Part shown: piece after piece, positions 4,821 to 38,466 of the stretch
Position numbering within the stretch: the stretch's first letter is position 1
How the letters are laid out: each line of letters starts with the position of its first letter
DNA from: an uncultured Bacilli bacterium
GTDB taxonomy: Bacteria; Bacillota_I; Bacilli_A; RF39; UBA660
Direction of reading: 5' to 3'
Assembly (NCBI GenBank): GCA_947629035.1
Contig: CANRCE010000002.1
Location: 251-64,250, forward strand
Length of the DNA: 64,000 nucleotides
Notes under the pieces: generated by a model
Database searches by the model: none
Told to the model about the DNA's origin: nothing
The model's input: the letters and a program-made list of their open reading frames with translations, nothing else
Made by a program: the position numbers and the translations under genes

Positions 4821-6287
4821 TTGAAAAAAATAAAAACAATATTAAAAATAATTACTTTAATTATAACCACTTGTAGTATTACCAAAGTATCTGCTAGTAG
4901 TTTATCATCGGAAGCTATTGCTGGAGTTTATGGAATATTTATATCTGATGATTATTATTCATTTCCTATGGACATTTATAGAATGGATGGTAGAGTAGCT
5001 TATTGTATTCAACCAGGAACTCAAATTATAACAAGTAATTATCTTGCTACTAGTGATACTAGTTTAAGTGGATTATCTCAAGATAAAATTGATTATATTA
5101 AATTAGTAGCTTACTATGGCTATGATTATTATAACCATCAAAATTATAATTATTATATTGCTGCTCAAGAATTAATTTGGGAAAAAGTAGTTGATGGTGG
5201 AGAGGGTTATTATACAACAACTCAAGAGGTTCATGGAGAAAAAATTGATATTGAAAAATATAAAGAAGAAATTTTAAATTTAATTGCCAAACATAATGAA
5301 ATTCCCTCTTTTGCCGATACAAAAGTTGTAAAACTTAAAAATAAAGATGTAACTATTGAAGATAAAAATAATGTCTTATCTTCATTTGAACTTACTGAAA
5401 GTGGTGCATCAATTAACAAAAATAAACTTACAATAACTAGTGATACAATAAATAAAATTTCTTTAGAAAAAAAGTTATATACTGATAAAGTTTTTTTGTT
5501 ATATTACTATTCTACATCACAAAAAATGATATCAGCAGGAATTATTGATGCTCCTAAAGTAGATGTTTATGTTGAACATACTGGAGCTAATCTTGAAGTT
5601 AAAAAGTTTGGGGAAGAGTTTGATATAACATTAAATGATTATCATAAAATACCTCTAGATGGTGTTACTTTTAATTTATATGCTAAAAGTGATATTGTTA
5701 CTAGTGATAATGTTATTCATTATAAAAGTGGTGATTTAATTGATACTTTTACAACTAATAAAGAGGGAAAAATTAATACTATTTTGTATTTTGGAGAGTA
5801 TTGTCTTGTTGAAAAATATGATAATTTTAATTATAAAATAGAGGATAATCCCTATTGTTTTACTTTAAGTCATGATGATAGTATTTCAATATATAACTAT
5901 CTTAAAAAGGGAAGTTTAAAGGTCATAAAAAAAGATGATAAAACTGGTAAAACATTACAAGGCACTACTATTGGTTTATATACTATGGATTCTAAATTAA
6001 TAGCAAGTAAAACGACAGATAATACAGGTTCAATTATATTTTCTGATATACCACTTGGTAGTTATTATATTAAAGAACTAGAAGCTAGTGAGGGTTATTT
6101 TTTAAATAATGATAAGATTTATGTTGAAGTTTTAGAGGATGATAAATTGGTAACAATTGATATTACTAATGAAAAAATAGTAAAAGTTCCGAAAACTGCT
6201 GATAATGAATATGATATTTCTAAATATATGTTTTTAGTTAATATAATTGGATTGTTTATGTTAAGATATGGTTTTAAGAAAATCTAA
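4821..6287 (+). CDS. cell-wall-anchored surface protein with Cna-B/SpaA-type (prealbumin-like) domains and a C-terminal sorting signal
   Basis: Signal peptide MKKIKTILKIITLIITTCSITKVSASS. Cna-B-like domain GSLKVIKKDDKTGKTLQGTTIGLYTMD...GSIIFSDIPLGSYYIKELEASEGY. C-terminus VPKTAD + hydrophobic YMFLVNIIGLFML + basic tail RYGFKKI, which is a sortase sorting-signal architecture. Host-like NNT codon usage. Confidence 0.7.
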   Translation: MKKIKTILKIITLIITTCSITKVSASSLSSEAIAGVYGIFISDDYYSFPMDIYRMDGRVAYCIQPGTQIITSNYLATSDTSLSGLSQDKIDYIKLVAYYGYDYYNHQNYNYYIAAQELIWEKVVDGGEGYYTTTQEVHGEKIDIEKYKEEILNLIAKHNEIPSFADTKVVKLKNKDVTIEDKNNVLSSFELTESGASINKNKLTITSDTINKISLEKKLYTDKVFLLYYYSTSQKMISAGIIDAPKVDVYVEHTGANLEVKKFGEEFDITLNDYHKIPLDGVTFNLYAKSDIVTSDNVIHYKSGDLIDTFTTNKEGKINTILYFGEYCLVEKYDNFNYKIEDNPYCFTLSHDDSISIYNYLKKGSLKVIKKDDKTGKTLQGTTIGLYTMDSKLIASKTTDNTGSIIFSDIPLGSYYIKELEASEGYFLNNDKIYVEVLEDDKLVTIDITNEKIVKVPKTADNEYDISKYMFLVNIIGLFMLRYGFKKI

Positions 6288-6792
6288 AATAATATTTATA
6301 GGTTTAATTTTTATAATCATATCATTAGGATATTATCGTAATTATTTTATTAATTATTTTGATAATATAAAAGATAAAATAAATGTCGATAATTATCTTT
6401 TAGGAAAAAATAATAAATTATTAGCAGTTATCTATATTCCTAAAATTAATTTAAAAAAAGGAATATATTTTTTAGAAACTAAAGAAAATAATGTAAATAA
6501 AAATATTGAACTCTTAAGAGGATCTACTTCTAGTGATATTCTTTTAGCAGCTCATTCAGGAAATGGAAAAAAAGGTTATTTTAATAATATATTTAATTTA
6601 AAATATAATGATTTTATCTATTTATATCATGAAAATAAAAAATATATTTACGAAGTAATAGATTTTTATAAAGTAGAAAAAGATGGATATTTAAAATTAG
6701 ATTATGTTAATTATAAAAGATTAGTTTTAACAACATGTGATATTCTAGAGGAAAATAAGCAATATGTTGTTATAGCAAAATTGATAACATAA
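6268..6792 (+). CDS. sortase family transpeptidase (short, N-terminal membrane anchor)
   Basis: 174 aa. N-terminal TM, His in LLAAHSG, catalytic Cys in LVLTTCD (TLxTC motif). Overlaps the preceding substrate gene by 20 nt. The usual Arg about 10 residues after the Cys is not obvious (QYVVIAK). Confidence 0.65.
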   Translation: MVLRKSKIIFIGLIFIIISLGYYRNYFINYFDNIKDKINVDNYLLGKNNKLLAVIYIPKINLKKGIYFLETKENNVNKNIELLRGSTSSDILLAAHSGNGKKGYFNNIFNLKYNDFIYLYHENKKYIYEVIDFYKVEKDGYLKLDYVNYKRLVLTTCDILEENKQYVVIAKLIT

Positions 6793-6900
6793 TTTAATAA
6801 AAACTACTTGAAATGGAGATAAAAATATGATATATTAAAGGTGATAAATAGGTAAGGAGAAGTAGAAAAAATGGATAGAAATACAAACATTTGTCTAATA

Positions 6901-7033: not shown

Positions 7034-10000
7034 ATGTTAAAAAATATAAGAAGAACATATATCCTAGCAGTAGCAGTAATAGGACTATTAGCAGTAGCAC
7101 TATATTCAACATATGCAATGTTTACAGCAAATGTTGATTTAGCAGATGTAAGTATAACCCCAAATGTAACATTAGATGCTAAATTACTAGAATATGAACA
7201 ATTAACCATACCAAAAAATGAATATAAAATAATAGAGTTAAATGTAGCAAATGATTATAATAGTGAATTACATTATGGAGCATGGTATGAAATGATAAAT
7301 CCAACAACTACAGATAATGTAATAATAGCCAAATATAGTGAAAGTCAAGATGAAACATCAGGAACAATAGGACAAAATATTACGAAGAAAATAAAAGTAA
7401 TCATCTATAATAAAAATAATGAAGATATAACTCTAAATATAGGAATAGGAAGTAATATCGATGAAAACTTAAATTTAGGAGATAATAGACATATAATACA
7501 AGATACTTATACCGTAGTAAAAGCAAATATAACACCAGATAATACAGGAACATTAAATACAAAAGAGCAAGTAATACTTCAAAATAGTGATGCAATATTT
7601 AATGTAACACCAAATGGAAATTATGAAATAAGTAATGTATCATGTACAGGAGACCAAACAGCAAGCTATGTAGGTAATACTGTAACTGTAGCAAATGTAG
7701 CAAAAACTACAACTTGTACGATAACGATGAAAGAGAAAACATATACTGTAAATGCAAGTTTAAATCCATCAGAAGCAGGTCAATTAGATAAAAATACCCA
7801 AACAGTAACAACTGGTCAAACAGCAACCTTTAAAGTAACACCAACTGATGGTTATGAAATAAATAATGTAACATGTACTGACAATAATAATGCAACTTTT
7901 AATGGAGCAACCGTAACAGTTTCTAATGTCACAAGTGATACCACTTGTATTATTAATATGAAATTAAAAACCTATACCGTCTATATAAGTGCAGATAATT
8001 CAACTATAAAAGATGGAACAAAAGTAAATAATATAGTAAAAAATGGTAGTTTTGAAGACGGAAATGCTAATTGGACATTAGAAAATGCAAGTGTAGTAAC
8101 AGCACAACATTCTCATGGTAGTAAATCATTACAATTAAATGGTGGAACGACACCAGTAACGCCTATGAGTAAGCAAACATTATCACCAAAATCACCAGTC
8201 TTAAATCATAAATATTATGGAAGATTAATGTTTTTATCATCAGCTGATTTCTCAACTAGTGATAATAGATATGAATGGTATAGTGGAGATGGACCTAATA
8301 AAAATTTAGTATTTGCTAATAAATCAGATAAAACAACAAGTTGGAAACTATTATCAAATATTCAATGGGTAACGGAAAATACATATTTATCAAACGACTG
8401 GTATATAAGAAATTTCCAAGTAAATGCAAATAGTAATTCATATGTCGATGAGTTAATGATAATAGATTTAACAGATAGTTTTGGAAGTGGAAATGAACCA
8501 AAAAAAGAATGGCTAGATAACATAATACCATATTTTGAAACATCAGGATCAGTATCTAGTAGTAATGTAGTACATGGAAATACAACAAAATTTACAATAA
8601 CACCAGATACAGGATATGAAATAGATAAATATAGTTGTACAAATGCAACTATAACTGCAAGTGAAAATGAATATACAATATCAGGAATTAATCAAAATAC
8701 AAAATGTAATGTAACAACCAAGAAAAAAACCTATAACATAACAACAACAATAACACCATCAAATGGTACAACAGTATCACCATCATCAACAACAGTTAAA
8801 CATGGTGAGACATCAGAAATATTTAAAATAACTCCTAAAACAGGATATCAAGTAAGTTTTGTTAATTGTACAAATGGAGAGGCTAAATTATCAGGAACTA
8901 ACTTTACTGTCGAAAATGTAACGGGTAATTCAGAATGTACTATAACTATGGAACTAAAAAGTTATAAGGTAAGTGCAAGTGTAAGTTCAAATGGAAGTGT
9001 AACTCCATCATCAAAAACCGTAACACATGGATCTAATGCCACTTTTACTGTAAATCCAAATGATGACTATGAAATAGATAAAGTAACATGCTCAAATAAT
9101 CAAAATGCAAGTTTTTCTGGAAATACTGTAACCGTAAAATCAGTTACTAATGAAACATCATGCACTATTACAATGAAGAAAAAAACTTATACTGTAACAG
9201 CTCAAATAAGACCACAAGATGCAGCAACAGTATCTGGAGGTAATACTAAAACAGTAAGTCATGGTTTAAGTACAAGTTTTAGTATAAGTCCTAATACAGA
9301 CTATCAATACTTATCAGTAAGTGGAACAGGCTGTAGTATTTCAGGAACGACACTTAATGTATCAAGTGTAACAGAAGAAGTAACCTGTGTAGTATCATAT
9401 TTTAAATCACTTACTCAAGATATAACAAATTTAAACTATACAGGGGATGTTCAAATATATAAAGTAACAGAAGCCGGATATTATAGATTAGAAGTATGGG
9501 GAGCTGAAGGAGGATATCGATCAAGTAGTATCTATTCAGGAAAAGGAGGATACTCTTACGGAACAGTATATTTAGAAAAAGATACGATGTTATATATTTA
9601 CGCTGGAGGTTCAGGAAATAGTGGAACATGTAGTAATAGTATTTGTACAGGAGGATTTAATGGAGGAGGATATCGACACACCTATAAAGGTGGAGGAGGA
9701 GCATCCGATGTCAGAATAGGCTCTGATGATTATTACTCAAGAGTAATTGTCGCTGGAGGTGGAGGTTCAGATGGAGCATCTACTAAAAAGGGACAATATG
9801 GTGGTGGAGAAACTGGAGGAAGTAGTAGTGAAGACTATAGTTCAGTGCGAGGTTCTGGTGGAAAAGGAGGAACACAAACTTACTCTGGATATTCAACATC
9901 TTATACAATTGAAACCCAAACAACTACAGGGCTTAATAGTAGTAAATTAGAAAATTATGCCGGAGGATTTGGTTTTGGAGGTGGAGGTGTTAGTTATAGA

Positions 10001-11419
10001 AATGGCTATGGAGGCGCTGGTGGAGGTGGCTGGTATGGTGGAAGTGGAAACGTACCAGATAGCTCTAGTGATAACGATAGAGGAGGAGGTGGAGGTTCAG
10101 GCTTTGTCTACACCAGTACAACCCCATCAACAACACTACCATCAGGCTATAAATTAACAGATAAATATCAACTTACTAGTGCAGCTACCATCGGAGGATA
10201 TAAAAGTTTTAATTCTCCATCGGGTTCACAAGAAACAGGACATACAGGAAATGGATATGTAAGAATAACCAAAGATAAATTAACAGTAAATGTATCAGTA
10301 TCACCTAGTGATAGTGCAAACATAACTGGAGATAGTAGTAAAATTACACATCATGGAGAAAATATAGAATTTATTATAACCCCCAAAGAAGGTTATAAAT
10401 ATTTTATGGCAGAAGGATGTACTTATGATGAAAATACAAATACTGCTACAGTATCAAATGTAACACAAGATACTACCTGTATAGTGAGATTCAGAGGAAA
10501 AACTAATATAGATACAATATTTGATAAATGTCAGACTGGAGGATGGAAAGATAATACAGAACCTGGTTTATACGAAGATGGAAATGGAAATTGTAGATAT
10601 GTTGGAGCTGGTCCTAATAATTGGATAAAATTTAATGATGATATGTATCAGATAATTGGAATTTTTAATGAAAATACACACGGTAAAAAAGGAGAGTACT
10701 TACTAAAATTAATTTATCCAGATATACTTATAGCAGCAGCATATGGTGCACATAATATAGATGAAACGAGTGGAACTTACTCAAACTATAGTAGTGATTG
10801 GACAGGATCAAAGCACAGTAGTCCTTCAAGCGCATACCTACTTTTAAATGAATATTTTTATAATGCGGCAGATTCATCAACAAAATATGGGGCATGTGAA
10901 AATTGGACATATTTTAATAATGGGAATGCTGATAAATCAAAAAATTGCGATACAATGGTAGTCTATGGAATAAAAGAAAAATATAGAAATTATATAGAAA
11001 ACACAGCAATATGGTATTTGTATGGACTTTCTTCTACTTATTTCACAAAAAAAGATGTATATCAATGCGAAAGAGGAGGATACAATTGTACAGCACCATA
11101 TGAAGCAACTACCCAAGCACCAATAGGTCTTATATATCTAACAGATTATCTATATGCAAGTGGTTATAGCTCAAATACTGCCAGTTTAACAAATTCTGCA
11201 TTTTACTATGAAAATTGGCTATACCAAGGAAGCGTGTGGGTATTATCACCATATAATGTCAATAGTGCAAGTATAACAAGCTTCGATAATAGCTATTTAT
11301 TTTCATCAAATTATCCATATTTTGGAAATGGTCTTCTCCCCACTTTCTATCTAAAATCTGATGTTAAAGTAACTGGAGGAGATGGAACTTTTAATAATCC
11401 ATATACTATCAGTTATTGA
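7034..11419 (+). CDS. giant (1461 aa) secreted multidomain protein: SipW-cognate-type signal peptide, about 7 InlB-B-like Ig repeats, CBM4_9-like module, glycine-rich (PF12810-like) domain, family-specific C-terminal domain
   Basis: N-terminus RRTYILAVAVIGLLAVALYSTYAMFTANVDL resembles TasA/camelysin-type signal peptides. Repeats of about 75 aa share 'TP.DGYEI..V.C....A.F.G.TVTV.NVT.DTTC.I.M..KTYTV'. Residues about 335-520 carry NGSFEDGNANWTLENASVVTAQHSHGSKSLQLNGG (CBM4_9 pattern). Residues about 805-1075 are Gly-rich (YRLEVWGAEGG...GKGGYSYGTVYLEKDTMLYIYAGGSG...VRIGSDDYYSRVIVAGGGG). The last roughly 300 aa are shared with three paralogs. RBS aGGTGAtagcctATG. Codons end in A (gca, gta, aca, ata, gga), unlike host genes. 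Confidence 0.8.
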   Translation: MLKNIRRTYILAVAVIGLLAVALYSTYAMFTANVDLADVSITPNVTLDAKLLEYEQLTIPKNEYKIIELNVANDYNSELHYGAWYEMINPTTTDNVIIAKYSESQDETSGTIGQNITKKIKVIIYNKNNEDITLNIGIGSNIDENLNLGDNRHIIQDTYTVVKANITPDNTGTLNTKEQVILQNSDAIFNVTPNGNYEISNVSCTGDQTASYVGNTVTVANVAKTTTCTITMKEKTYTVNASLNPSEAGQLDKNTQTVTTGQTATFKVTPTDGYEINNVTCTDNNNATFNGATVTVSNVTSDTTCIINMKLKTYTVYISADNSTIKDGTKVNNIVKNGSFEDGNANWTLENASVVTAQHSHGSKSLQLNGGTTPVTPMSKQTLSPKSPVLNHKYYGRLMFLSSADFSTSDNRYEWYSGDGPNKNLVFANKSDKTTSWKLLSNIQWVTENTYLSNDWYIRNFQVNANSNSYVDELMIIDLTDSFGSGNEPKKEWLDNIIPYFETSGSVSSSNVVHGNTTKFTITPDTGYEIDKYSCTNATITASENEYTISGINQNTKCNVTTKKKTYNITTTITPSNGTTVSPSSTTVKHGETSEIFKITPKTGYQVSFVNCTNGEAKLSGTNFTVENVTGNSECTITMELKSYKVSASVSSNGSVTPSSKTVTHGSNATFTVNPNDDYEIDKVTCSNNQNASFSGNTVTVKSVTNETSCTITMKKKTYTVTAQIRPQDAATVSGGNTKTVSHGLSTSFSISPNTDYQYLSVSGTGCSISGTTLNVSSVTEEVTCVVSYFKSLTQDITNLNYTGDVQIYKVTEAGYYRLEVWGAEGGYRSSSIYSGKGGYSYGTVYLEKDTMLYIYAGGSGNSGTCSNSICTGGFNGGGYRHTYKGGGGASDVRIGSDDYYSRVIVAGGGGSDGASTKKGQYGGGETGGSSSEDYSSVRGSGGKGGTQTYSGYSTSYTIETQTTTGLNSSKLENYAGGFGFGGGGVSYRNGYGGAGGGGWYGGSGNVPDSSSDNDRGGGGGSGFVYTSTTPSTTLPSGYKLTDKYQLTSAATIGGYKSFNSPSGSQETGHTGNGYVRITKDKLTVNVSVSPSDSANITGDSSKITHHGENIEFIITPKEGYKYFMAEGCTYDENTNTATVSNVTQDTTCIVRFRGKTNIDTIFDKCQTGGWKDNTEPGLYEDGNGNCRYVGAGPNNWIKFNDDMYQIIGIFNENTHGKKGEYLLKLIYPDILIAAAYGAHNIDETSGTYSNYSSDWTGSKHSSPSSAYLLLNEYFYNAADSSTKYGACENWTYFNNGNADKSKNCDTMVVYGIKEKYRNYIENTAIWYLYGLSSTYFTKKDVYQCERGGYNCTAPYEATTQAPIGLIYLTDYLYASGYSSNTASLTNSAFYYENWLYQGSVWVLSPYNVNSASITSFDNSYLFSSNYPYFGNGLLPTFYLKSDVKVTGGDGTFNNPYTISY
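9444..10270 (+). other. glycine-rich domain-coding segment inside the giant ORF (PF12810-like); source of spurious alternative-frame ORFs
   Basis: GGN/GGA codon runs. Translated motifs LEVWGAEGG, LYIYAGGSG, ASDVRIG, RVIVAGGGGS, GGAGGGGWYGGSG match the bacterial glycine-rich-protein family pattern. ORF-track entries 9747..9950 and 9957..10157 are off-frame artefacts of this region. Confidence 0.6.
10619..10649 (+). repeat. 31-nt block (aattggataaaatttaatgatgatatgtatc) identical in three paralogs (also 11770..11800 and 25797..25827)
   Basis: Identical at nucleotide level inside the conserved C-terminal domain of the giant ORF, the 338-aa paralog and the 486-aa paralog. Encodes NWIKFNDDMY. Confidence 0.85.
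11338..11376 (+). repeat. 39-nt block near the 3' end of the giant ORF, 37/39 identical to 12468..12506 in the next paralog
   Basis: cccactttctatctaaaatctgatgttaaagtaactgg versus cccactttctatctaaaacctgacgttaaagtaactgg. Encodes PTFYLK(S/P)DVKVTGG. Confidence 0.8.
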
Positions 11420-11532
11420 TTTAGTTTAAATAGTGTTTACTTTTAAAGAGAAGATTAGTATCTATTGTTAATGCAATAATTATAAATTATATACAATAAA
11501 AAGTATTAAAAATAGAAAAGAGGTATTAGAAT

Positions 11533-12549
11533 ATGAATAAGAAATCGGTGATAGGTTCTAGTATGATATTAACAACAATAATAGGAATAGTATCAATATA
11601 TATTGGGAATACATATGCAGTAGAAAATGTTAGCGAAAGTGGCTCCTATAACACTTTAGTGGATACAATAATAGGTTTAGCTCCTGAAGAAGTTGGATGG
11701 GAGGCAGGAGCAGAAGGACTATACCAAGATGAAAATGGAGATTATCGATATATTGGAGGTAGTCCAGATAATTGGATAAAATTTAATGATGATATGTATC
11801 GAATAATTGGAATATTTCAAGAAAACACTCATGGTTTAGAAGGCTATCGAGTAAAATTGATTAGAGTAAAACCAATTGGAGCATATGCATATGGAGTTTA
11901 TCTCAAAAATAATTCTACTCGATATCATGGTGTCGACTTGGTTGGAATAAATGATGGTGATCAAAGCACTCCATTAAATTCGTATATATTACTAAATGAA
12001 TATTTTTATAATGCAACAGATGTATCAGAAGATTATGGAAAATGTGAAGATTGGGCATACGTTACAACTAGTAAGACAAAAAATTGTGATACAATAATAG
12101 GATATGGAATAAAAAATGAATACAGAAGTTACATAGAAAACACAGCGACATGGCACTATAATTGGTGTTATACTGATTTAAGTAAACAAGCTTTATATCA
12201 ATGTGAAAGACTTAGTGTTAATATAGATTATAGTACTCAAATGCCAGTTGGAGTAATGTATGCTTCTGATTACGCATACGCAAGTGGATATTTAGCAAGT
12301 TCAGATGCTGTTAATCAAGCGCTACGGGCAGGATCTAATTGGCTTTATATTGGATATGAATGGACAATAACACCAAATTGCTGGTTCCAAACTCTTTTTG
12401 TTAACCCTGGTGGAATGATAAGTTCATGTGATTTTAATTTAGGTTCAGAACATTCTATGCCAATACGTCCCACTTTCTATCTAAAACCTGACGTTAAAGT
12501 AACTGGTGGTACAGGGGCATATGATGATCCATATACTATTAGTATGTAA
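11533..12549 (+). CDS. secreted paralog (338 aa): signal peptide + family C-terminal domain only
   Basis: Signal MNKKSVIGSSMILTTIIGIVSIYIGNTYA|VE. Remainder aligns with the C-terminal 300 aa of the giant ORF (GLYQDENGDYRYIGGSPDNWIKFNDDMYRIIGIF, NTHG, YGKCEDWAY, NCD, QCER, YASGY, NWL, EWTITP, RPTFYLKPDVKVTGG). A-ending codon bias like the giant ORF. Confidence 0.8.
   Translation: MNKKSVIGSSMILTTIIGIVSIYIGNTYAVENVSESGSYNTLVDTIIGLAPEEVGWEAGAEGLYQDENGDYRYIGGSPDNWIKFNDDMYRIIGIFQENTHGLEGYRVKLIRVKPIGAYAYGVYLKNNSTRYHGVDLVGINDGDQSTPLNSYILLNEYFYNATDVSEDYGKCEDWAYVTTSKTKNCDTIIGYGIKNEYRSYIENTATWHYNWCYTDLSKQALYQCERLSVNIDYSTQMPVGVMYASDYAYASGYLASSDAVNQALRAGSNWLYIGYEWTITPNCWFQTLFVNPGGMISSCDFNLGSEHSMPIRPTFYLKPDVKVTGGTGAYDDPYTISM
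11761..11801 (+). repeat. 41-nt block identical to 25788..25828 in the 486-aa paralog
   Basis: agtccagataattggataaaatttaatgatgatatgtatcg is present in both genes. Confidence 0.8.
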
Positions 12550-12640: not shown

Positions 12641-13675
12641 TTATTTATTATTTTTTTTCTTTATTAATTTGGTTATTATGATGCCTAGGATTAATGATGA
12701 TATACTGACTAAAATATATAGTAGTAGGTTATTGTTTATAAGTAATTCTTTTTTATTGAATAGGCCAAATATAAATCGATATACAACGATAAAGAATGGG
12801 TGTATTATATAGATTATTAATGTTACTTTTTGATAGTTAAATTTTAGATTTTTATGAAAGTCTTTTAGGTAATTAAATAGAAAATACATAAGTGGTGGTA
12901 AGAAGATATACATAGAATCATGTCTTTGTAAATTAAAGTGTTTAAGTATTAATCCTTCGATTATCATTGGTATTAATAGGATAAATATATAGATTATACT
13001 AGTTTTTTTGTCTTCATGTTTTGCTATATAGCCTCCTAGGACTAGGAATATTGGTACATATAGGAAACCATTTTTGGTATAATTAAAAAATAGAAAGATA
13101 AAGTCATAAAAATAATTAATTATTGTTTTATTAATAAGGTAGTAATAGCTGTCTCCGAATAGGGCTATTATATATAATATTATACTTATTATAAAGGTGG
13201 TTTTAAATTTTAATTTTTTATTTAAAAAATATACTAATATTATTCCTATAATAACGTTGGGAAAATACCATAAATGATAAAATAGTCCATTAAATAAGAA
13301 ATCTTTGATAATGGTAAGAATGCTATTTTCTATAAAATAATGGTTGTATATTAGTATGGGTATATATATTATAGTGGCTATAATATATATTTTAAATAGT
13401 TTTATTATGCTTTTTTTAAATGTTTTAAAATCATTTTTATATAGGAAGAAACCTGTTTTCATTATGAAAAATGGAACTCCTACACGGGCAATAATTCTTG
13501 TAAGAATAAAGTCTAAATTTAAATTTATTGTTTCAAGTGGTGATATGTGGTTTGCCATTGATAAAAAGGCTGCAATTAAACCAAATATTGCAAGTTGTGA
13601 ATAAAATTTTTTTTCTTCAATCATAAGTGTACCTCCATCTATAACAATTTTAACAAATAATGAAGAATATAACAA
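12641..13675 (-). CDS. acyltransferase family 3 (OatA-like) integral membrane protein
   Basis: 344 aa, about 10 TM segments. ARVGVPFFIMKTGFFLY resembles the V(D/P)xFFxxSGF motif of acyltransferase_3. HLWYFP motif. Confidence 0.5.
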   Translation of the reverse strand: MLYSSLFVKIVIDGGTLMIEEKKFYSQLAIFGLIAAFLSMANHISPLETINLNLDFILTRIIARVGVPFFIMKTGFFLYKNDFKTFKKSIIKLFKIYIIATIIYIPILIYNHYFIENSILTIIKDFLFNGLFYHLWYFPNVIIGIILVYFLNKKLKFKTTFIISIILYIIALFGDSYYYLINKTIINYFYDFIFLFFNYTKNGFLYVPIFLVLGGYIAKHEDKKTSIIYIFILLIPMIIEGLILKHFNLQRHDSMYIFLPPLMYFLFNYLKDFHKNLKFNYQKVTLIIYIIHPFFIVVYRFIFGLFNKKELLINNNLLLYILVSISSLILGIIITKLIKKKNNK

Positions 13676-13762: not shown

Positions 13763-16135
13763 ATGGAGAATAAGGGTGATGTTATGGCTAATGTGTCTAA
13801 TTATTATAAAACAAGTATAGAAAATTGTATAGCTCATAAAGAATGTATGGTAATAGGTAGAAAGTATCGTTTTACTGTTTTAACTGATAGACTTATTAGA
13901 TTACAATATTCACCAAGTGGTATGTTTGAAGATCGCCCAACTTCTAGAGTAATATTTCGTAATTTTGAAAGACCTATATTTACTGTAGAGGAGAGTGCTA
14001 CTTTAATTCAAATAAATACCAAATATTTTACTTTAAATTATGTTAAAGATAGATCTTTTAAAGGGGGAATTTTAACTCCGGCTTCGACTTTAAAAGTAAA
14101 TTTAAAAAATAGTGATAGAGAATGGTATTATAATCATCCAGAAGCTCGTAATTTTGGGACAATTAATTATTCTTTGGATGATTTTAATGGTAATTTAAAA
14201 TTAGATAAAGGTCTATATTCTACAGATGGTTTTTGTGTTATAGATGATTCTGATAGTTTAGTATTAAATGATGCTTTTGAATTTGTAAAAAGAGATCATA
14301 AAGAGATGGATTTATATTTATTTATGTATCGAAGAGATTTTAGTTTATGTCTACAGGATTATTATATGTTAACGGGTTATCCTAGTTTAATACCTAGATA
14401 TGCTTTGGGTAATTGGTGGTATAAGAATGAAAAATATACAAATAATGATATTTATGAAGTAATTGATAATTTTAATAAAAATAAAATACCTTTAAAGGTA
14501 TTGGTTTTAGGTGATTTTTGGCATGATAATTTGACACCTTATATTTTTGATAATACGGTGATTAATGCTGGTGAATTATTAAATTATTTAAATTCTAGAA
14601 ATATTAAATTAGCACTAACAATAAATCCTAGTTTAAAAGTTGATAGTAAAAGTAAATATTATAATAATTTTAGTTCTTTGTTGGAAAATAATAGTTTTGT
14701 TCCTTTTAGTAATAGTTCAATAAATGTTTATTATAATATGATATTAAAGCCTTTATTTGATAGTGGAATTAGTTTAATTAATATTGATTATAATAATCCT
14801 AAAGATAGATTAGGATTATGGCAGTTTAATAATTTACATGTATCTATGCAAGAACAAAAAGGAATAAGGGGTCTTATTTTATCCCGAAATAGTAAAATAG
14901 CTCAACATCGTTATCCGATTGTTTTTAGTGGTAAGACAAGAGTAAGTTGGAATACATTAAATGCTTTACCTAGATATAATTTATCAGCTTCAAATATGGG
15001 AATATCTTGGGTAGCACATGCGATTGGAGGATACTATAAGGGTATTGAGCAAGAAGAGTTATATTTAAGATATATTGAACTTGCTACTTTTTCTCCTATC
15101 TTTTTGTTGGCTAGTGAAAGGGGTAAATATTATAAAAGAGAACCTTGGAAATGGAATGATAAAGTTTTAGAAATAACAAGAGAATATATGCAATTAAGAC
15201 AGAGATTAATTCCTTATATTTATAATGAAGCATATATTTATCATTTGACAGGAGCTCCATTAATTCAAGCTTTTTATTATCAATATCCTAAAATATATGA
15301 TGAACCTTATTATAAAAATCAATATTTCTTTGGAAGATATATGTTTGTAGCGCCGATTACTAAAAAGAAAAATGTTGTTATGAATAGAGTAGTTCAAAGG
15401 TTGTTTGTACCTGATGGTACTTGGTTTGATTTTAAATCTGGTTTGAAATATCCTGGTGGTAAATATTACATGAATTTTTATAAAGATAATGATTATCCTG
15501 TTTTTTGTAAAGCTGGTTCTATTATTCCTCTTGCAATGGATACTTTGGATATTCCAAAGACTATTGAACTTATAATTTTTCCTTTAGATAATAATAGTTA
15601 TGATTTGTATGAGGATGATGGTATTACTAATAGATATACTAATAAAGAGTATTTAATTACTAATTATGAATATAATTATATAAAAGATAATTATACTTTA
15701 AAGATAAGTAAAAAAGAGGGTATTAATTTAATAGATAAACGAAATTATAAAATAAGATTTAAAAATACCAAAAATGTAAGTAATGTAAAAGCTTTAGTAA
15801 ATGGTATAGCAAATCCTGCTAATTGTTATTATGATAATACTGATTTAATTATTGAATTATTAGATATTGATATTAATGCTACTGTAGATATTAATATAAT
15901 GGGTTCTGATATTGAGGTTAGTACTTCTAGATTAATTACTAATGATATAAAAGATGTTATTTATGATTTAGAAATTGAGACAGTTTTAAAAGAAAAAATT
16001 GATGATATATTATTTAGTGATATGTCTATTAAGAAAAAAAGAATTGCTATTAGAAAATTAAAAAAGCAAAAATTAGAACCTAGATTTATTAAGGCTTTTC
16101 TTAATTTGTTAGATTTTATGAATGAAGAAAAATAA
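13763..16135 (+). CDS. glycoside hydrolase family 31-like protein (alpha-glucosidase/alpha-xylosidase fold), possibly non-hydrolytic
   Basis: 790 aa, no signal peptide. GH31 signature-2 region present (VAHAIGGYYKGIEQEELYLRYIELATFSPIFLLASE matches GADIGGF...RW.Q.GAFSPF.R.H). Nucleophile region reads LGDFWHDN. The acid/base WTGD region reads SWNT, so there is no Asp. Confidence 0.6.
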   Translation: MENKGDVMANVSNYYKTSIENCIAHKECMVIGRKYRFTVLTDRLIRLQYSPSGMFEDRPTSRVIFRNFERPIFTVEESATLIQINTKYFTLNYVKDRSFKGGILTPASTLKVNLKNSDREWYYNHPEARNFGTINYSLDDFNGNLKLDKGLYSTDGFCVIDDSDSLVLNDAFEFVKRDHKEMDLYLFMYRRDFSLCLQDYYMLTGYPSLIPRYALGNWWYKNEKYTNNDIYEVIDNFNKNKIPLKVLVLGDFWHDNLTPYIFDNTVINAGELLNYLNSRNIKLALTINPSLKVDSKSKYYNNFSSLLENNSFVPFSNSSINVYYNMILKPLFDSGISLINIDYNNPKDRLGLWQFNNLHVSMQEQKGIRGLILSRNSKIAQHRYPIVFSGKTRVSWNTLNALPRYNLSASNMGISWVAHAIGGYYKGIEQEELYLRYIELATFSPIFLLASERGKYYKREPWKWNDKVLEITREYMQLRQRLIPYIYNEAYIYHLTGAPLIQAFYYQYPKIYDEPYYKNQYFFGRYMFVAPITKKKNVVMNRVVQRLFVPDGTWFDFKSGLKYPGGKYYMNFYKDNDYPVFCKAGSIIPLAMDTLDIPKTIELIIFPLDNNSYDLYEDDGITNRYTNKEYLITNYEYNYIKDNYTLKISKKEGINLIDKRNYKIRFKNTKNVSNVKALVNGIANPANCYYDNTDLIIELLDIDINATVDINIMGSDIEVSTSRLITNDIKDVIYDLEIETVLKEKIDDILFSDMSIKKKRIAIRKLKKQKLEPRFIKAFLNLLDFMNEEK

Positions 16136-25010: not shown

Positions 25011-25039
25011 TAGACAGAGGAATCTATTTATGTTATAAT
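25011..25039 (+). promoter_or_regulatory. candidate sigma-A promoter for the downstream paralog pair
   Basis: TAGACA-17 nt-TATAAT (ctaGACAgaggaatctatttatgtTATAATc), 115 nt upstream of the ATG at 25155. Confidence 0.4.
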
Positions 25040-25154: not shown

Positions 25155-26615
25155 ATGATTGATAAAATAAAAGTAATTTTAGCAATTTGTATAAGTACTT
25201 TCTTATTAGGAATTGGAATGACTTATGCTTGGTATACTTGGCAATCAGATAGTAACACTAACATTTCTTTTAAAATAATGAGTATGGCTGATGTAAGTTT
25301 TGCTACAGGAAATGATATTAATGTCGATGATTTAGCTCCTGTTTTAGACTATAAAGATGGAAAAATGACATCATTTTCTATAAATAATAAAAAAGAACAA
25401 ACCTTTACTGGTATGGTTAATTTAGAAATAACAACGATAGATGAAAATTTAAGAGTTGAAGATTTTAAATATGTTTTATTAAGCTCCAATGATAATAATA
25501 GTTTTACAGAAATAGCCAATGGTAATTTTAAAGATCAAGGACCTCAAACTATTACAATTAAAGAAATAGAAGTAAATCCAGGTATTACGTATTATCAATT
25601 TATAATTTATATCGATGGTAATATGGAAAATAATATTAATATGATGAATAAGCAATTTGTAGCTAAACTTATGGTTGAAGTTAAGGGAGTAAGTGATATA
25701 TTAGATTCTTGTGCTGATGAAGAGTGGGTATCTGGCGCTGAAGGCTTATATAAAGATGGAAATGGAAATTGTCGATATATCGGTGCAAGTCCAGATAATT
25801 GGATAAAATTTAATGATGATATGTATCGTATAATTGGTATTTTTGATGGTAATACTCATAAAAAAGAGCAAGAGAATTTATTAAAACTAATATATCCAAG
25901 TGCTTTTATTTCTAGTTCTTATGGAATATATAATACTACTAATGATAGTGGTACTTATTCTAATTATAGTAATAGTTTTAAGAATGATACTCAAGCTAGT
26001 CCATCAAATGCTTATGTTTTATTAAATGAATATTTTTATAATAAAACTAATACGTCAGGCACATATGGTGATTGTAATAATTGGACATATTTTCGAAATA
26101 GTGATGGAAAACAAGTAGGAAGCTGTGATAAAATGTTAGCCTATGGTATAAAAAGTGAATATCAAGATTATATTGAAAGTAATGTAACTTGGTATTTATA
26201 TGGAAATGCAGATAATACTATTAAAAGACAAGAGATGTATTTGTGTGAGAGAGGATTAAATGGTTGTACTAGTGCAAATGGTGGAGCGTCTAGTGAAAGT
26301 ATTATAGCTCCAATTGGATTAATGTACCCATCAGATTATTCATATGCTAGTGGTAAGTATTCAATAAGTGAAGATCCAAGATTATCTGAAAAAGATTTAG
26401 GTATTGAAAATTGGCTATTTACAGGTTATGAGTGGATTATAACACCATCAAGTAGTGATGCTAAAAAAGTTTTTCAAATAACGGATCAAGGTTTAGTTGA
26501 TATAGAGAGTGCATATCACTCACTTGTCTTACGTCCTGTATTTTATTTAAAATCAGATGTAAAAATAATAAATGGAAGTGGATCTTATAATGATCCTTAT
26601 GAAGTAAGTTTATAA
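25155..26615 (+). CDS. secreted paralog (486 aa): SipW-cognate-type signal peptide + roughly 150-aa N-terminal domain + family C-terminal domain
   Basis: N-terminus KVILAICISTFLLGIGMTYAWYTWQSDSN resembles TasA/camelysin signal peptides. The C-terminal 300 aa align with the other three paralogs (GLYKDGNGNCRYIGASPDNWIKFNDDMYRIIGIF, NTH, YGDCNNWTYF, SCD, LCERG, YASG, ENWL, EWIITP, RPVFYLKSDVKI). Host-like T-ending codons. Confidence 0.75.
   Translation: MIDKIKVILAICISTFLLGIGMTYAWYTWQSDSNTNISFKIMSMADVSFATGNDINVDDLAPVLDYKDGKMTSFSINNKKEQTFTGMVNLEITTIDENLRVEDFKYVLLSSNDNNSFTEIANGNFKDQGPQTITIKEIEVNPGITYYQFIIYIDGNMENNINMMNKQFVAKLMVEVKGVSDILDSCADEEWVSGAEGLYKDGNGNCRYIGASPDNWIKFNDDMYRIIGIFDGNTHKKEQENLLKLIYPSAFISSSYGIYNTTNDSGTYSNYSNSFKNDTQASPSNAYVLLNEYFYNKTNTSGTYGDCNNWTYFRNSDGKQVGSCDKMLAYGIKSEYQDYIESNVTWYLYGNADNTIKRQEMYLCERGLNGCTSANGGASSESIIAPIGLMYPSDYSYASGKYSISEDPRLSEKDLGIENWLFTGYEWIITPSSSDAKKVFQITDQGLVDIESAYHSLVLRPVFYLKSDVKIINGSGSYNDPYEVSL
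25788..25828 (+). repeat. 41-nt block identical to 11761..11801
   Basis: agtccagataattggataaaatttaatgatgatatgtatcg. Confidence 0.8.
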
Positions 26616-26639: not shown

Positions 26640-27692
26640 TTGCAAAAGAAATTGATAATAAATTTTAGTTTAATATTAATAGTAATTACTATGGCATCAG
26701 TATATATAGGAAATACTTATGCTCATGCTGATGAATCATCCCAAGCAGCAACTACTTTATTAACAGAGGAGATTAAGAATAAAAGCCAAGGCCAAGGTTG
26801 GTCTTCGGGTAATGAAGGATTATATCAGGATGAAAATGGTGACTATCGATATGTCGGAGCAAATCCTAATAATTGGGTAATATTTAATGATGATAGATAT
26901 CAAATAATTGGTATGTTTAATAAAAATACCCATGGATTGGATGGCTATCGAGTAAAATTAATAAGAGCAAAACCAATCGGGGCTTATGCTTGGGGAGTAT
27001 ATAATGATAGCAATACTAGTGGTACTTATTCTAATTATAGTGCTAATTGGACTGGAAAAGGTCAAAGTACGCCAGCTAATTTATATGTTTTATTAAATGA
27101 ATATTTTTATAATAAAAAAGATACTTCAGATACATATGGTAATTGTAATGATTGGACATATTTTTCATCCAATTTAAGAAAAACCCAAAATTGTGATGTT
27201 ATAGTAGACTATGGTATAAAAAGTGAATATCAAAATTATATTGAAAGTGAGGCAACCTGGTATTTATATGGCATTTTAAGTACTAATTTAGAAGTACAAA
27301 GGCGAGATATGTACGAGTGTGAAAGAGGATCGGGAGATTGTACTAGTGCAAATAGTGGAGCATCTGATACAAGTATCACTGCGCCAATTGGACTTATGTA
27401 TCCTACTGATTATCTATATGCAACTAATAATTATGCTGATAGTAATAATGCTCATAAATTAGTCGAAAACAATTATGGTATTTCCAATTGGTTATATATG
27501 GGTTATGAGTGGACTATAACTCCAACTACTGATGAGCAAATTGCTCTTCGAGTTGAGTATAATAGTAGTATTAATAAAAATTATACTTGTTTTGCTAATC
27601 TTGTTCGTCCAACTTTTTATTTAAAGTCTGATGTTTATGTAAAAAGTGGTGATGGGTCATATAATAATCCTTATGTCTTGACACTTTCGTAA
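26640..27692 (+). CDS. secreted paralog (350 aa): signal peptide + family C-terminal domain
   Basis: TTG start with RBS aaaGAGGTG. Signal ...ITMASVYIGNTYA|HADE. Domain GLYQDENGDYRYVGANPNNWVIFNDDRYQIIGMF, NTHG, YGNCNDWTYF, NCD, ECERG, YAT, NWL, EWTITP, RPTFYLKSDVYV. Confidence 0.75.
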   Translation: MQKKLIINFSLILIVITMASVYIGNTYAHADESSQAATTLLTEEIKNKSQGQGWSSGNEGLYQDENGDYRYVGANPNNWVIFNDDRYQIIGMFNKNTHGLDGYRVKLIRAKPIGAYAWGVYNDSNTSGTYSNYSANWTGKGQSTPANLYVLLNEYFYNKKDTSDTYGNCNDWTYFSSNLRKTQNCDVIVDYGIKSEYQNYIESEATWYLYGILSTNLEVQRRDMYECERGSGDCTSANSGASDTSITAPIGLMYPTDYLYATNNYADSNNAHKLVENNYGISNWLYMGYEWTITPTTDEQIALRVEYNSSINKNYTCFANLVRPTFYLKSDVYVKSGDGSYNNPYVLTLS

Positions 27693-36156: not shown

Positions 36157-38466
36157 TTGAATATTCAAAATAACAGTATTATTATAATGCCTAGTGCTTT
36201 TAAAAATAGTTTAATTAAAAAGATAAGAGAAGAAAATAAATTATTAAATGTTAAATTTATATCTGATTTAGAATTTATTAAAAAGTATTATTTTGATTAT
36301 AATGAAAAAACTTGTTATTATATAATGCAAAAATATAAAGTAAATTATGAAATTGCTAATATTTATCTTCAAAATATTTATTATGTAATAGATTCTAACA
36401 ATAATAATTCTAAAGTTTTATTTTTAAAAGATATTTATAATGATTTAATAAATAATGATCTTCTTATTATAGATAAAGGTTTTTCTAGTTATTTAAAAAC
36501 AAAAAACATTTATCTTTATAAAAAAGAATTATTAAATGAAATAGCGTTAGTGAAATTAGATAATTTCTCTTATGATGTAATAAATGAAAATAATAATACT
36601 TATAAATTACCTTGTATTTTAGAATTTTCAACTATCGAAGAAGAAGTTGATTATGTAGCAAATGAAATTGTCAGTTTAATAAAAAATAATGTAGATATCA
36701 ATAAAATAAAATTAGTAGGTATCGATAAAAACTACATTAATATTTTAAAAAGAACTTTTAAGTTTTATCATTTACCTTTAGATTTAGGAATAAATAAAGT
36801 TTTATATAATACTGATATTGGTCTATATTTTTTAAAAAACTTATCGGATGATTTTGAAGTATTAAATAAAATTAAAGAAAATTATAATTTAGATAATAGT
36901 GAAAACTTGAATATCTATAATACTATTATTGATGTATTAAATAATTTTACTTGGACAGATAGTTACCTTAAAATAAAAGAAATTTTAATTGAAATATTTA
37001 AAAAAACGAAAATTAAAAGTAAGATAACTAAAAATAAAATAAGCATTGTTGATTTAAAAGAAGAAGATTTTAATGATGAATATGTTTTTGTTATGAATTT
37101 TAGTATGAATAATATTCCTTTCGTTTATAAAGATGAAGATTATCTCTCATCACAAATAAAACAAGATTTAGGTTATCGTAGTATAACTTTAAAAAATAGA
37201 CGTGAACTAGAAAACATTACTAGGATTTTAACTAGGATAAAAAATTTAACAATTACTTTTAAAAAGGAAGATATAAATGGTAGTTATTATATTTCTAGTT
37301 TAGTAGATAAGCTAAATTTAGAAGTTAAAACGATATCTTTTTCTTCATATAAAAATTCTAATTTAGCGAACAAATTAAAATTAGCTAAAATGTTAGATCT
37401 TTATAATAAGTATGGTATTTTAAATACAGATATAAATATTTTAGCTAGTATGTATCCTAATTTTAATTATAAAACTTATACTAATGATTATCATAATATA
37501 AATTTAGATAGTCTAAATAAATATCTAGATAATAAGTTATTTTTATCTTATAGTAGTCTAAATAATTACTTTTTATGTCCATTTAAATATTATTTAGCTA
37601 ATATTTTAAACGTTAATTTTTTTGAAGATACTTATTATAGTGATATCGGTAGTGTTTTTCATGAAGTGTTAGCTAAATATGAAGATAGTGATTTTGATAT
37701 AGATAAATATTTTTCTAAATTAAAATTTAATAATTTAAAGGAAAAATTTTTCTATAATAAATTAAAGGAAGATTTAAAATTTATAATTGATGCTCTAAAA
37801 AAACAAGCTACTTATTGTAGTTTTAACAAAAGCTTAAAGGAAGAAAAAGTAAAAGTATTACTTAAAGATAATGTTATTTTTTCTGGTATTATTGATAAGA
37901 TTTTATATAAAGAAGAAAATGATCAGACTAATTTAGCGATTATTGATTATAAAACAGGAAATGTGTCCCTTGATTTATCATTATTAAAATATGGATTAAA
38001 TATGCAACTTCCTATTTATATTTATCTTATATTAAATTATAAAAAAATTAATAATCCAAATATTGTAGGTATCTATTTACAAGAGTTATTAAACTATGAC
38101 AAAAAAGAAGAAGATTTAAATTCTTCCAAATTAGATAGTTTAAAATTAAAGGGTTATAGTGTATCCGATAAAGAAATATTAGAAAAATTTGATAGTAATT
38201 ACTTTGATTCAAAAATGATTAAAGGCTTAAAAATAAATAATGATGGTTCTTTTAATCATAATGCAAAAATATTAAATAAGGATGATTTTATCAATATTTA
38301 TAATGAAGTTGATGATAGGATAAAATTTGCTATTTCTAATATTAAAAAAGCTAACTTTAAAATTAATCCTAAAGTTATTAAAGGAAATAATGTAAGTTGT
38401 AAGTTTTGTCCGTATCAAGATATTTGTTATGTCAAAGTAGAAGATATGAGTTTTATTGAAAAGTAG
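36157..38466 (+). CDS. addB: ATP-dependent helicase/nuclease subunit B-like (compact AddB/RexB: RecB-type nuclease domain with Fe-S cysteines, no Walker A)
   Basis: 769 aa versus about 1150 for typical AddB. C-terminal PD-(D/E)xK nuclease (GSVFHEVL ... IIDYKTGN ... QLPIYIY) and Cys cluster C..CKFCPYQDIC. No GxGKT motif in the N-terminal part. Translationally adjacent to addA. Confidence 0.65.
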   Translation: MNIQNNSIIIMPSAFKNSLIKKIREENKLLNVKFISDLEFIKKYYFDYNEKTCYYIMQKYKVNYEIANIYLQNIYYVIDSNNNNSKVLFLKDIYNDLINNDLLIIDKGFSSYLKTKNIYLYKKELLNEIALVKLDNFSYDVINENNNTYKLPCILEFSTIEEEVDYVANEIVSLIKNNVDINKIKLVGIDKNYINILKRTFKFYHLPLDLGINKVLYNTDIGLYFLKNLSDDFEVLNKIKENYNLDNSENLNIYNTIIDVLNNFTWTDSYLKIKEILIEIFKKTKIKSKITKNKISIVDLKEEDFNDEYVFVMNFSMNNIPFVYKDEDYLSSQIKQDLGYRSITLKNRRELENITRILTRIKNLTITFKKEDINGSYYISSLVDKLNLEVKTISFSSYKNSNLANKLKLAKMLDLYNKYGILNTDINILASMYPNFNYKTYTNDYHNINLDSLNKYLDNKLFLSYSSLNNYFLCPFKYYLANILNVNFFEDTYYSDIGSVFHEVLAKYEDSDFDIDKYFSKLKFNNLKEKFFYNKLKEDLKFIIDALKKQATYCSFNKSLKEEKVKVLLKDNVIFSGIIDKILYKEENDQTNLAIIDYKTGNVSLDLSLLKYGLNMQLPIYIYLILNYKKINNPNIVGIYLQELLNYDKKEEDLNSSKLDSLKLKGYSVSDKEILEKFDSNYFDSKMIKGLKINNDGSFNHNAKILNKDDFINIYNEVDDRIKFAISNIKKANFKINPKVIKGNNVSCKFCPYQDICYVKVEDMSFIEK

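Follow-up and report, generated by a model that had tools for sequence, protein, structure and literature searches.

The 64-kb stretch of DNA analysed here (the window) encodes four proteins that end in the same domain of about 300 amino acid residues, which the first-pass annotation had left unassigned. The locus thereby raises the question of which structural class this domain belongs to, and which role four predicted exported copies of it may have in an uncultured gut Bacilli bacterium.

Four paralogs in two gene pairs

Four ORFs on the + strand, the strand of all features below, were confirmed at 7034-11419, 11533-12549, 25155-26615 and 26640-27692. Their layout is that of two long and short gene pairs. 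The last ~300 aa, common to the four ORFs, share 44-51% pairwise identity over the profile columns, and full-length alignment of the other three domains with that of the giant ORF gave 45-48% identity. A family profile scored the four domains at 395-479 bits, far above chance, and detected no fifth domain copy in the 64-kb window. ORFs, alignment and profile scores bear out the initial proposal of a four-member paralog family, whose members are all predicted to be exported.

The giant long paralog (7034..11419, 1461 aa), delimited by its ORF and the profile, begins with a leader of 28 residues (7034..7117; ...AVALYSTYA then MFTANV), putatively cleaved after TYA; its N-terminus reads as originally quoted (..YSTYAMFTA..). 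This leader had no HMM match in Pfam and NCBIfam scans, and its pattern of an h-region followed by (S/T)(Y/F)A-x-(F/W) is also seen in long relatives. The leader is followed by an N-terminal beta-rich domain, about eight InlB-B-repeat-like modules including an unassigned insert of ~170 aa, a glycine-rich domain of the ALK_LTK_GRD type (9470..10270, aa 813-1079; Pfam PF12810, 134.8 bits, E 6.3e-39), one further repeat and the C-terminal DUF6273-like C-type-lectin-fold domain (10481..11416). The latter was placed by alignment and by the family profile (aa 1150-1461, 413 bits), and its fold was taken over from the model of the homologous 338-aa paralog. Flg_new_2 was also matched among the Pfam models.

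Long paralog B (25155..26615, 486 aa) consists of a leader (aa 1-25, ..GIGMTYA then WYTWQSD), a jelly-roll beta-sandwich N-domain (aa ~26-175) and a DUF6273-like C-terminal domain (aa ~176-486). Its N-terminus agrees with the earlier quotation (..GMTYAWYTWQSD..). Short paralog A (11533..12549, 338 aa), the protein used for the structure model, carries a Sec-type signal peptide (aa 1-29, ..YIGNTYA then VEN) and a stand-alone DUF6273-like domain. Short paralog B (26640..27692, 350 aa, TTG start; 479 bits with the family profile) is likewise composed of a Sec-type signal peptide (..YIGNTYA then HAD) and a DUF6273-like domain, and a near-identical ortholog of it was found (P0003). The putative signals of both short ORFs thus end in ..YIGNTYA as first described, with V or H as the next residue. 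From these N-termini we infer the export and the cleavage sites of the four proteins.

All four proteins terminate in ...NPY(T/E/V)(I/V/L)S/T-x, and an LPXTG-type sorting signal (motif, hydrophobic segment and positive tail) is absent from their C-termini. An adjoining 488-aa TED/SpaA protein does carry a sorting signal (VPKTAD, TM and KKI). Promoter and terminator scans of the window did not rise above shuffled sequence; the sole standouts, by position alone, were 6808-6836 and 25011-25039. The sequence motifs first quoted for the family are present with three exceptions: NTHG reads NTHK in the 486-aa ORF, and in the giant ORF EW.ITP is replaced by VWVLSP and RP(T/V)FYLK by LPTFYLK. The spacing between the His and the Cys in the domain of the giant is 72 residues (H65, C137).

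Identity of the shared C-terminal domain

In none of the four proteins did the C-terminal domain match a Pfam or NCBIfam model directly. DUF6273 (PF19789, gathering score 23.5 bits) was not found in them even at E<=1. It nonetheless ranked first of the Pfam families in the close homologs, with sub-threshold matches in 4 of 45 (best E 0.005). The family profile in turn finds the proteins P0147, P0166 and P0232 at E 1e-43 to 1e-80, and these exceed the DUF6273 gathering score with 45.6, 45.2 and 57.5 bits, respectively. The residues matched by the two models overlap, as in P0166, where Pfam covers 856-1004 and the profile 798-870 and 881-1024. Together with the fold, this overlap links the window domains transitively to DUF6273. 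The profile search proposed in the first-pass annotation hence came out blank for direct models and reached DUF6273 once the wider family served as a bridge.

An AF2 model of the 338-aa paralog (pTM 0.81) resembles both the DUF6273 domain and C-type lectin domains. Further structure-search matches included TvpA, TaqVP, Mtd, FGE-like proteins and many C-type lectin domains, and those in BFVD included phage proteins named 'DUF6273 domain-containing protein'. By the transitive profile link and the modelled fold, the window C-terminal domain is a divergent, insertion-bearing branch of the DUF6273 / C-type-lectin-fold (CLec) domains, and can no longer be called unassigned. A phmmer search of the PDB with the DUF6273-positive P0232 did not recover 9qa6, so that the solved structure is not linked to the family at the level of sequence.

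That structure, ThomasA, an IgA peptidase of Thomasclavelia ramosa, carries its DUF6273 domain at the N-terminus (residues 31-322) and next to an M64 peptidase, whereas the window domains are C-terminal and without such an attachment. In the IgA-peptidase study the DUF6273 domain was dispensable for catalysis and was given no function. The window domains are also longer (~300 aa) than the Pfam model of 172 positions. In comparison with DUF6273 they add an insertion of ~35 aa, modelled with low confidence (aa 112-148 in the 338-aa ORF), and Cys-bearing loops. We know of no ligand for DUF6273 domains.

The family was earlier considered lineage-specific, which does not hold in the narrow sense. 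At E<=1e-3 the profile matched 6,968 representatives of 50%-identity clusters; in species-representative genomes there were 464 matches, and the loci among the matches listed span about 50 assemblies.

Variable loops in the sister clade and their counterparts in the window

In MAGs of sister-clade gut Bacilli, the long and the short gene enclose an Avd gene, a reverse transcriptase (RT) gene and a template repeat (TR). The two proteins between the genes correspond to bAvd and RVT_1; of the related loci, 11 have the RT and 12 have Avd. One TR pairs with two VRs, one in the long and one in the short target. In L077 every mismatch between TR and VR falls at a TR adenine, and in L003, L005-L008 and L015 most do; L077 and L005, as examples, have 12-15 mismatches at A and 0-1 at other positions. 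This adenine-specific mutation is confined to a loop of ~25 aa that precedes the RPxFYLK strand. The cassettes of the relatives are chromosomal, with enolase, RuvX and YceG in their flanks. DUF6273 has been described as a CLec-like DGR target with a C-terminal VR, in large and small targets (PMC10743442; PMC11792537). The sister-clade cassettes resemble the published two-target phage DGR cassettes in the VR within a C-terminal hairpin, the single TR and the adjoining Avd and RT.

Both gene pairs of the window have counterparts in this set: L003, L015 and L077 for the 486-aa ORF, and L005, L007 and L010 in the DGR clade for the giant ORF (N-domain E 4e-16, glycine-rich domain E 3e-105). The loop equivalent to the VR lies at 11252..11338 in the giant (YNVNSASITSFDNSYLFSSNYPYFGNGLL; GC 0.28, the gene average), where it was defined by its position, which matches that of the VR in L077, at 12376..12465 in short paralog A (NCWFQTLFVNPGGMISSCDFNLGSEHSMPI; GC 0.33), at 26448..26531 in long paralog B (SSSDAKKVFQITDQGLVDIESAYHSLVL; GC 0.32) and at 27525..27605 in short paralog B (TTDEQIALRVEYNSSINKNYTCFANLV; GC 0.27). 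In the model of short paralog A this loop forms two strands (aa 286-290 and 296-299), which we read as a predicted hairpin.

The RT and Avd proteins of the relatives, searched against the 64-kb window with tblastn, gave nothing better than E 2.6. Neither a TR-like copy of any of the four loops, with scores equal to those of shuffled controls, nor a high-identity repeat occurs in the window. The VR-equivalent loops of the DGR clade have a GC content of 0.45-0.64; those of the window have 0.27-0.33, the same as the rest of the gene. The window loops are dissimilar to one another, and the greatest divergence among the paralogs falls within them. The window genes are static paralogs without a hypermutation signature, the absence of a DGR being read within the 64 kb.

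Predicted function and alternatives

Taken as a whole, the data are probably best explained by exported, static DUF6273-like proteins that bind ligands through a CLec-fold domain, with the hairpin as binding surface. The shared C-terminal ~300 aa would constitute the binding domain, which the long proteins would carry on a stalk. This stalk would comprise the leader and the beta-sandwich in the 486-aa protein, and the leader, the N-domain, the Ig-like repeats and the glycine-rich domain in the giant; the short proteins would be Sec-secreted stand-alone copies of the domain. By analogy with the sister clade, the hairpin of about 25-30 residues before the last conserved strand (RPxFYLK) is most likely the binding surface and is predicted to contact the ligand. 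Since a retroelement is absent from the window and the loops lack a hypermutation signature, the organism would carry four fixed specificities. Both of the cassette types in which they are arranged have counterparts elsewhere that bear a DGR. A surface glycan or protein of the host or of microbes would be a candidate ligand. To our knowledge, DGR-type CLec domains generally lack the EPN/QPD and WND motifs by which true C-type lectins bind Ca2+ and carbohydrate.

A more specific reading concerns the long paralogs, at least those of the 486-aa type, as subunits of fibres similar to TasA or archaeal bundling pili, linked by donor strands and displaying lectin-fold domains. The long members resemble TasA/camelysin and AbpA/AbpX in a leader h-region followed by (S/T)(Y/F)A-x-(F/W)-T and then a beta-sandwich. 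A SipW-type peptidase would remove the leader, the freed N-terminal strand (WYTWQSD... or MFTANV...) would enter the beta-sandwich of the next subunit, and each subunit would display a binding domain of lectin fold that is DGR-hypermutable in sister species; the filament might be capped or decorated by the short secreted paralog. Likenesses to TasA/camelysin proteins were seen among relatives: the N-domain of L031 passes Peptidase_M73 (30.6 bits, cut-off 22.5), TIGR04088 gave weak matches in 3 of 33 relatives (E ~0.01) along with weak TapA matches, and an hhalign comparison yielded 56% probability (E 1e-4). Neither PF12389 (Peptidase_M73) nor TIGR04088 matched in the two long window proteins, and the top sequence match of the N-domain profile in the PDB, AbpX, was not significant (E 0.17). 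Among the genes beside family members in L077-L082, a Pfam search for Peptidase_S24/S26 returned only a housekeeping-type S26 adjoining rplS in L081. The TasA/SipW-type leaders originally attributed to both long ORFs thus persist weakly for the 486-aa ORF, through the likeness of its leader, and not for the giant. We regard the fibre as unlikely; if true, gut Bacilli with reduced genomes would possess a programmable adhesive fibre of a type not described before. Our literature search for DGR together with TasA, or with RF39, found no papers.

Somewhat less probable still is a catalytic use of the CLec fold, as an FGE/sulfatase-modifying enzyme, a sulfoxide synthase or another enzyme that employs the conserved E-R ... 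D. The residues conserved family-wide include the polar E225, R226 and D246, which could belong to an enzymatic or metal site and not simply to the scaffold.

There is also a small chance that a retroelement outside the 64-kb window acts in trans on the four genes, which would then be live DGR targets. The pairs of L010, L011 and L012 have no RT between the long and the short gene and yet possess VR-like loops with GC 0.54-0.64, which makes arrangements that act in trans probable for the family. The window loops, however, are of ordinary GC content, unlike each other and without a template-like copy in the 64 kb, and the nearest orthologs, the adjacent pair P0002 and P0004, likewise lack Avd and RT. 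It is very improbable that the genes are left over from a prophage module for receptor binding or tail fibres. DUF6273 is common among the DGR targets of gut phages, but the two loci are surrounded by housekeeping genes (LeuRS, AspRS, MreCD and a ThiF-family protein, named from their translations, and an AAA ATPase, GH31 and ThiF), and no phage genes were seen at either locus. Moreover, unlike virion proteins, the four proteins begin with predicted export signals, and the chromosomal setting is shared by the cassettes of the relatives.

The clan CD-like cysteine peptidase suspected at first from a His-then-Cys dyad (NTHG ... G-x-C) is hardly credible: His100 and Cys171 vary little or not at all in the close subfamily, but the modelled fold is lectin-like and not caspase-like, and His100, Cys171 and Cys224 are missing in much of the wider family (98 distant domains), where other core residues are near-invariant. 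A non-significant match to cruzipain, the only one obtained in the PDB with profiles of 4 and 45 sequences (E 0.05-0.19), was rejected as noise; it is short and local and the fold is incompatible.

Ligand binding by a static CLec-fold domain, with the loop as the putative contact site, is therefore the likely role of the family, and the four genes are to be annotated as exported DUF6273-like lectin-fold proteins and not as proteases. The domain is neither new nor a protease; it is of a known kind, present here as four fixed copies. This gives a structural class and a likely, predicted role to a family that lacks annotation across thousands of clusters from gut metagenomes. It also shows that, in a clade of uncultured gut Bacilli of low GC, several chromosomal cassettes are given over to such proteins. 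One clade has both cassette types together with a two-target DGR and the clade of the window has them without it, so that hypermutation and a fixed set of paralogs can be compared in nature as means of surface recognition.

The shared C-terminal domain

Four proteins encoded on the forward strand of the window end in a common C-terminal domain. At locus A, the giant ORF (7034-11419, 1461 aa) is followed after 113 bp by short paralog A (11533-12549, 338 aa), and locus B has the same layout, with long paralog B (25155-26615, 486 aa) and, 24 bp downstream, short paralog B (26640-27692, 350 aa, TTG start). The first-pass annotation was right in grouping the four as paralogs: their last ~300 residues align over the full length, with 45-48% identity to the giant ORF and 90-odd invariant columns, and each ORF scores 395-479 bits against a family profile. 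Pairwise identities on profile columns range between 44 and 51%, and the profile detected no fifth copy in the window. The motifs quoted for the domain are present, with deviations in the 486-aa ORF (NTHK) and the giant ORF (VWVLSP and LPTFYLK).

The domain had been called unassigned, which is literally true for single-sequence scans of Pfam and NCBIfam, where the domain of the window proteins had no match, but profile links and fold lead to DUF6273 and the C-type-lectin (CLec) fold. When 45 close homologs were scanned singly, DUF6273 (PF19789) was the top, sub-threshold match (four members, best E 0.005). Three distant profile matches (P0147, P0166 and P0232) exceed the DUF6273 gathering score (45-57 bits vs 23.5), and their DUF6273-matched residues overlap the segments matched by the family profile. 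Foldseek against viral models retrieved several gut-phage proteins named 'DUF6273 domain-containing protein'. This makes the C-terminal domain a divergent representative of DUF6273/CLec. Relative to the 172-position Pfam model, it adds a low-confidence insertion of ~35 aa (aa 112-148) and Cys-containing loops.

The close clusters of the family number 237, nearly all unnamed metagenome proteins of ~345 aa. A search with the profile of 45 sequences matched 6,968 representatives of 50%-identity clusters at E<=1e-3, of which 3,896 reach E<=1e-10; in many, the domain is repeated in tandem. P0122 and P0196 contain 8-22 matched stretches, and a relative's locus (L050, 2268-12908) holds one open frame of 3,547 aa, running to the locus end, with seven full and one split domain copies.

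A His/Cys peptidase resembling clan CD, suggested earlier from the order of these residues, finds no agreement in the fold, which is not caspase-like, or in the conservation among 118 aligned full-length domains from the profile search. In the 98 distant ones, His100 (of NTHG) is kept in 40 and deleted in 29, and Cys171 is kept in 46; the Cys224 position holds Tyr, Ala or Ser in the wider family. Near-invariant are E225, R226, G240, Y243, D246, W270, W277, R312, P313, Y316 and L317. The His and Cys residues are subfamily traits, and the Cys residues probably form two local disulfide loops (G-x-C...N-C-D and C-E-R-G-x-x-C). A weak sequence match to cruzipain was dismissed as noise.

Retroelement targeting in relatives and fixed paralogs in the window

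Searching one genome per species gave 464 matching stretches. Of the 76 loci listed, almost all belong to MAGs of gut Bacilli or 'Tenericutes' that are uncultured (from human, chicken, rabbit, mouse and deer), and several copies per genome are common. The closest clade, with ~40-43% identity to the window proteins, also has long and short pairs, often separated by ~2.4 kb encoding bAvd (PF22296), an RVT_1 reverse transcriptase (RT) and a 96-aa ORF, as annotated with Pfam. This is a diversity-generating retroelement (DGR): in L077, one 75-nt template repeat (TR) just after the RT (13428-13502) matches one variable repeat (VR) at the 3' end of the long gene (11354-11428) and another at that of the short gene (14826-14900), with mismatches only at template adenines. 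The adenine bias recurs in L003, L005, L006, L007, L008 and L015; 11 related loci carry an RT and 12 an Avd.

The VR codes exactly for the ~25 residues from (E/Q)W-x-I-T-P to R-P-x-F-Y-L-K. The window-protein model places two strands in the equivalent segment (aa 286-290 and 296-299), which we read as a hairpin. Both agree with published DUF6273-type DGR targets, large and small, whose VR lies at the domain C-terminus on a surface beta-hairpin (PMC10743442; PMC11792537). In the four-sequence alignment, the window domains differ most in this predicted hairpin.

Three MAGs of the same clade (L010, L011 and L012) have directly adjacent pairs with no RT between them and GC-rich, VR-like loops (GC 0.54-0.64), which suggests a DGR acting in trans from another cassette of the same genome. 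In L077, L003, L078, L015, L014 and L070, the long target gene is immediately preceded by a 71-aa ORF (9771-9986 in L077) whose N-terminus (MKLNNKGQTLVEYILIISL...) resembles Flp/type-IVb pilins; tblastn detected no window counterpart (E 0.96). Because sporulation-associated genes (YabP, YqfD and Spore_Cse60) adjoin cassettes in L077 (886-2438 and 7107-7277) and L079 (1474-1653), these uncultured low-GC Bacilli may be spore formers.

There is no DGR within the 64 kb of the window. A tblastn search with RT, Avd and accessory ORFs of the relatives found nothing, neither strand holds a template-like copy of the loops (scores equalled shuffled controls), and the window has no high-identity repeat. 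The VR-equivalent loops of the four genes have the GC of their own genes (0.27-0.33), whereas in the DGR clade loop GC is 0.45-0.64 against a gene GC of 0.30-0.39. In a neighbour-joining tree, the window domains group with the orthologs P0002-P0005, and the sister of this group is the DGR clade. Every paralog pairs with a separate ortholog (P0004 for the giant ORF, P0002 for short A, P0003 for short B), which speaks for ancient duplications and for maintenance of the genes. The nearest ortholog pair has no DGR either. Counterparts of the giant ORF are the 818-864-aa long proteins of L005, L007 and L010 (common N-domain, E 4e-16; glycine-rich domain, E 3e-105), those of the 486-aa ORF the ~500-aa long proteins of L003, L015 and L077; judged by these similarities, each window locus matches a specific DGR cassette type.

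N-terminal modules and neighbouring genes

The short paralogs carry ordinary Sec-type signal peptides ending in TYA. Long proteins of the window and of dozens of MAGs have in common an h-region, next to it (S/T)(Y/F)A-x-(F/W)-(T/V), and after this a beta-rich domain. The TasA/SipW-type leader proposed for both long proteins finds no support in the giant ORF and is plausible but unproven for the 486-aa ORF. An iterative search with the mature N-domain of the latter reaches L031, whose N-domain exceeds the Peptidase_M73/camelysin threshold (30.6 vs 22.5 bits), and hhalign gave a probability of 56% (E 1e-4). The SipW-dependent signal model TIGR04088 matched weakly in 3 of 33 relatives and TapA in two; among PDB sequences, the N-domain profile matched AbpX, an archaeal bundling protein, best, though not significantly (E 0.17). 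No Peptidase_S24/S26 gene adjoined family members in the Pfam-annotated contigs of relatives examined, other than a housekeeping-type S26 beside rplS in L081.

In some MAGs, a type IV pilin/pseudopilin-type N-terminus (KKGFTLVELLAVIVIL...) replaces the TasA-like leader (L073, 7593-8870; L075, 1197-3068; L076, 4697-6805), so that export or fibre modules of at least two different kinds appear to present the DUF6273-like domain. L081 (3806-4819) joins a 486-aa-type leader and beta-sandwich N-module to a DUF285 C-terminus (BspA-like repeat, PF03382) instead of the lectin-fold domain; this N-module thus looks like a general display module of the lineage.

Between Ig-like repeats, the giant ORF embeds a bacterial copy of the ALK/LTK-type glycine-rich domain (aa 813-1079, 9470-10270, forward strand, PF12810, E 6e-39), strongly conserved in L005 and L010 (E 1e-104 or better). 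A ~170-aa insert between its B-repeat modules (aa ~330-500, ~8020-8530, forward strand) starts with NGSFEDGNANWTLENA... and has no Pfam match; this motif may resemble the start of CBM4/9/22-type carbohydrate-binding modules.

The neighbours of the loci, read from translations and Pfam, are housekeeping genes (LeuRS, AspRS, MreC/D, AAA ATPase, ThiF-family protein, GH31). GC is ~25%. Encoding MreC and MreD, the organism has a cell wall. Immediately before the giant ORF (4821-6792, forward strand), the gene of a 488-aa pilin-like protein overlaps that of a 174-aa sortase (Pfam Sortase, E 1e-13; top subclass matches class C/D). The pilin-like protein combines a thioester domain (TED, E 3.6e-6) with two SpaA prealbumin-like domains (E 7e-29), and at its C-terminus are the sorting signal VPKTAD, a TM segment and the tail KKI. 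As all four lectin-fold proteins lack a sorting signal, a functional link is unproven. L081 also has a TED/SpaA protein near a family member. At 36157-41544 (forward strand), where the window is richest in AT (GC 0.18-0.21), lie genes for an AddB-like PD-(D/E)XK nuclease (769 aa) and for an AddA/UvrD-type helicase (1025 aa).

Proposed role

Most likely, these are exported proteins presenting a CLec-fold binding domain, on a stalk in the long forms and free in the short forms. The data show the paralogy, the fold class, the connection to DUF6273, the targeting of relatives by DGRs and the lack of a DGR in the 64 kb; we infer export with cleavage, ligand binding, a contact surface formed by the loop and any partnership of long and short forms. 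The hairpin, as the segment targeted by DGRs in sister species, would determine specificity. The closest known systems are DUF6273 domains (the ThomasA N-terminal domain, phage DGR targets and 'tentaclins'), like which the window proteins would work in our view, and CLec-fold DGR variable proteins, from which they differ in having neither a VR/TR pair nor an RT within the 64 kb. The finding, no surprise to a specialist, serves annotation and offers a natural contrast between repertoires driven by DGRs and a fixed one, which in this genome would consist of four variants.
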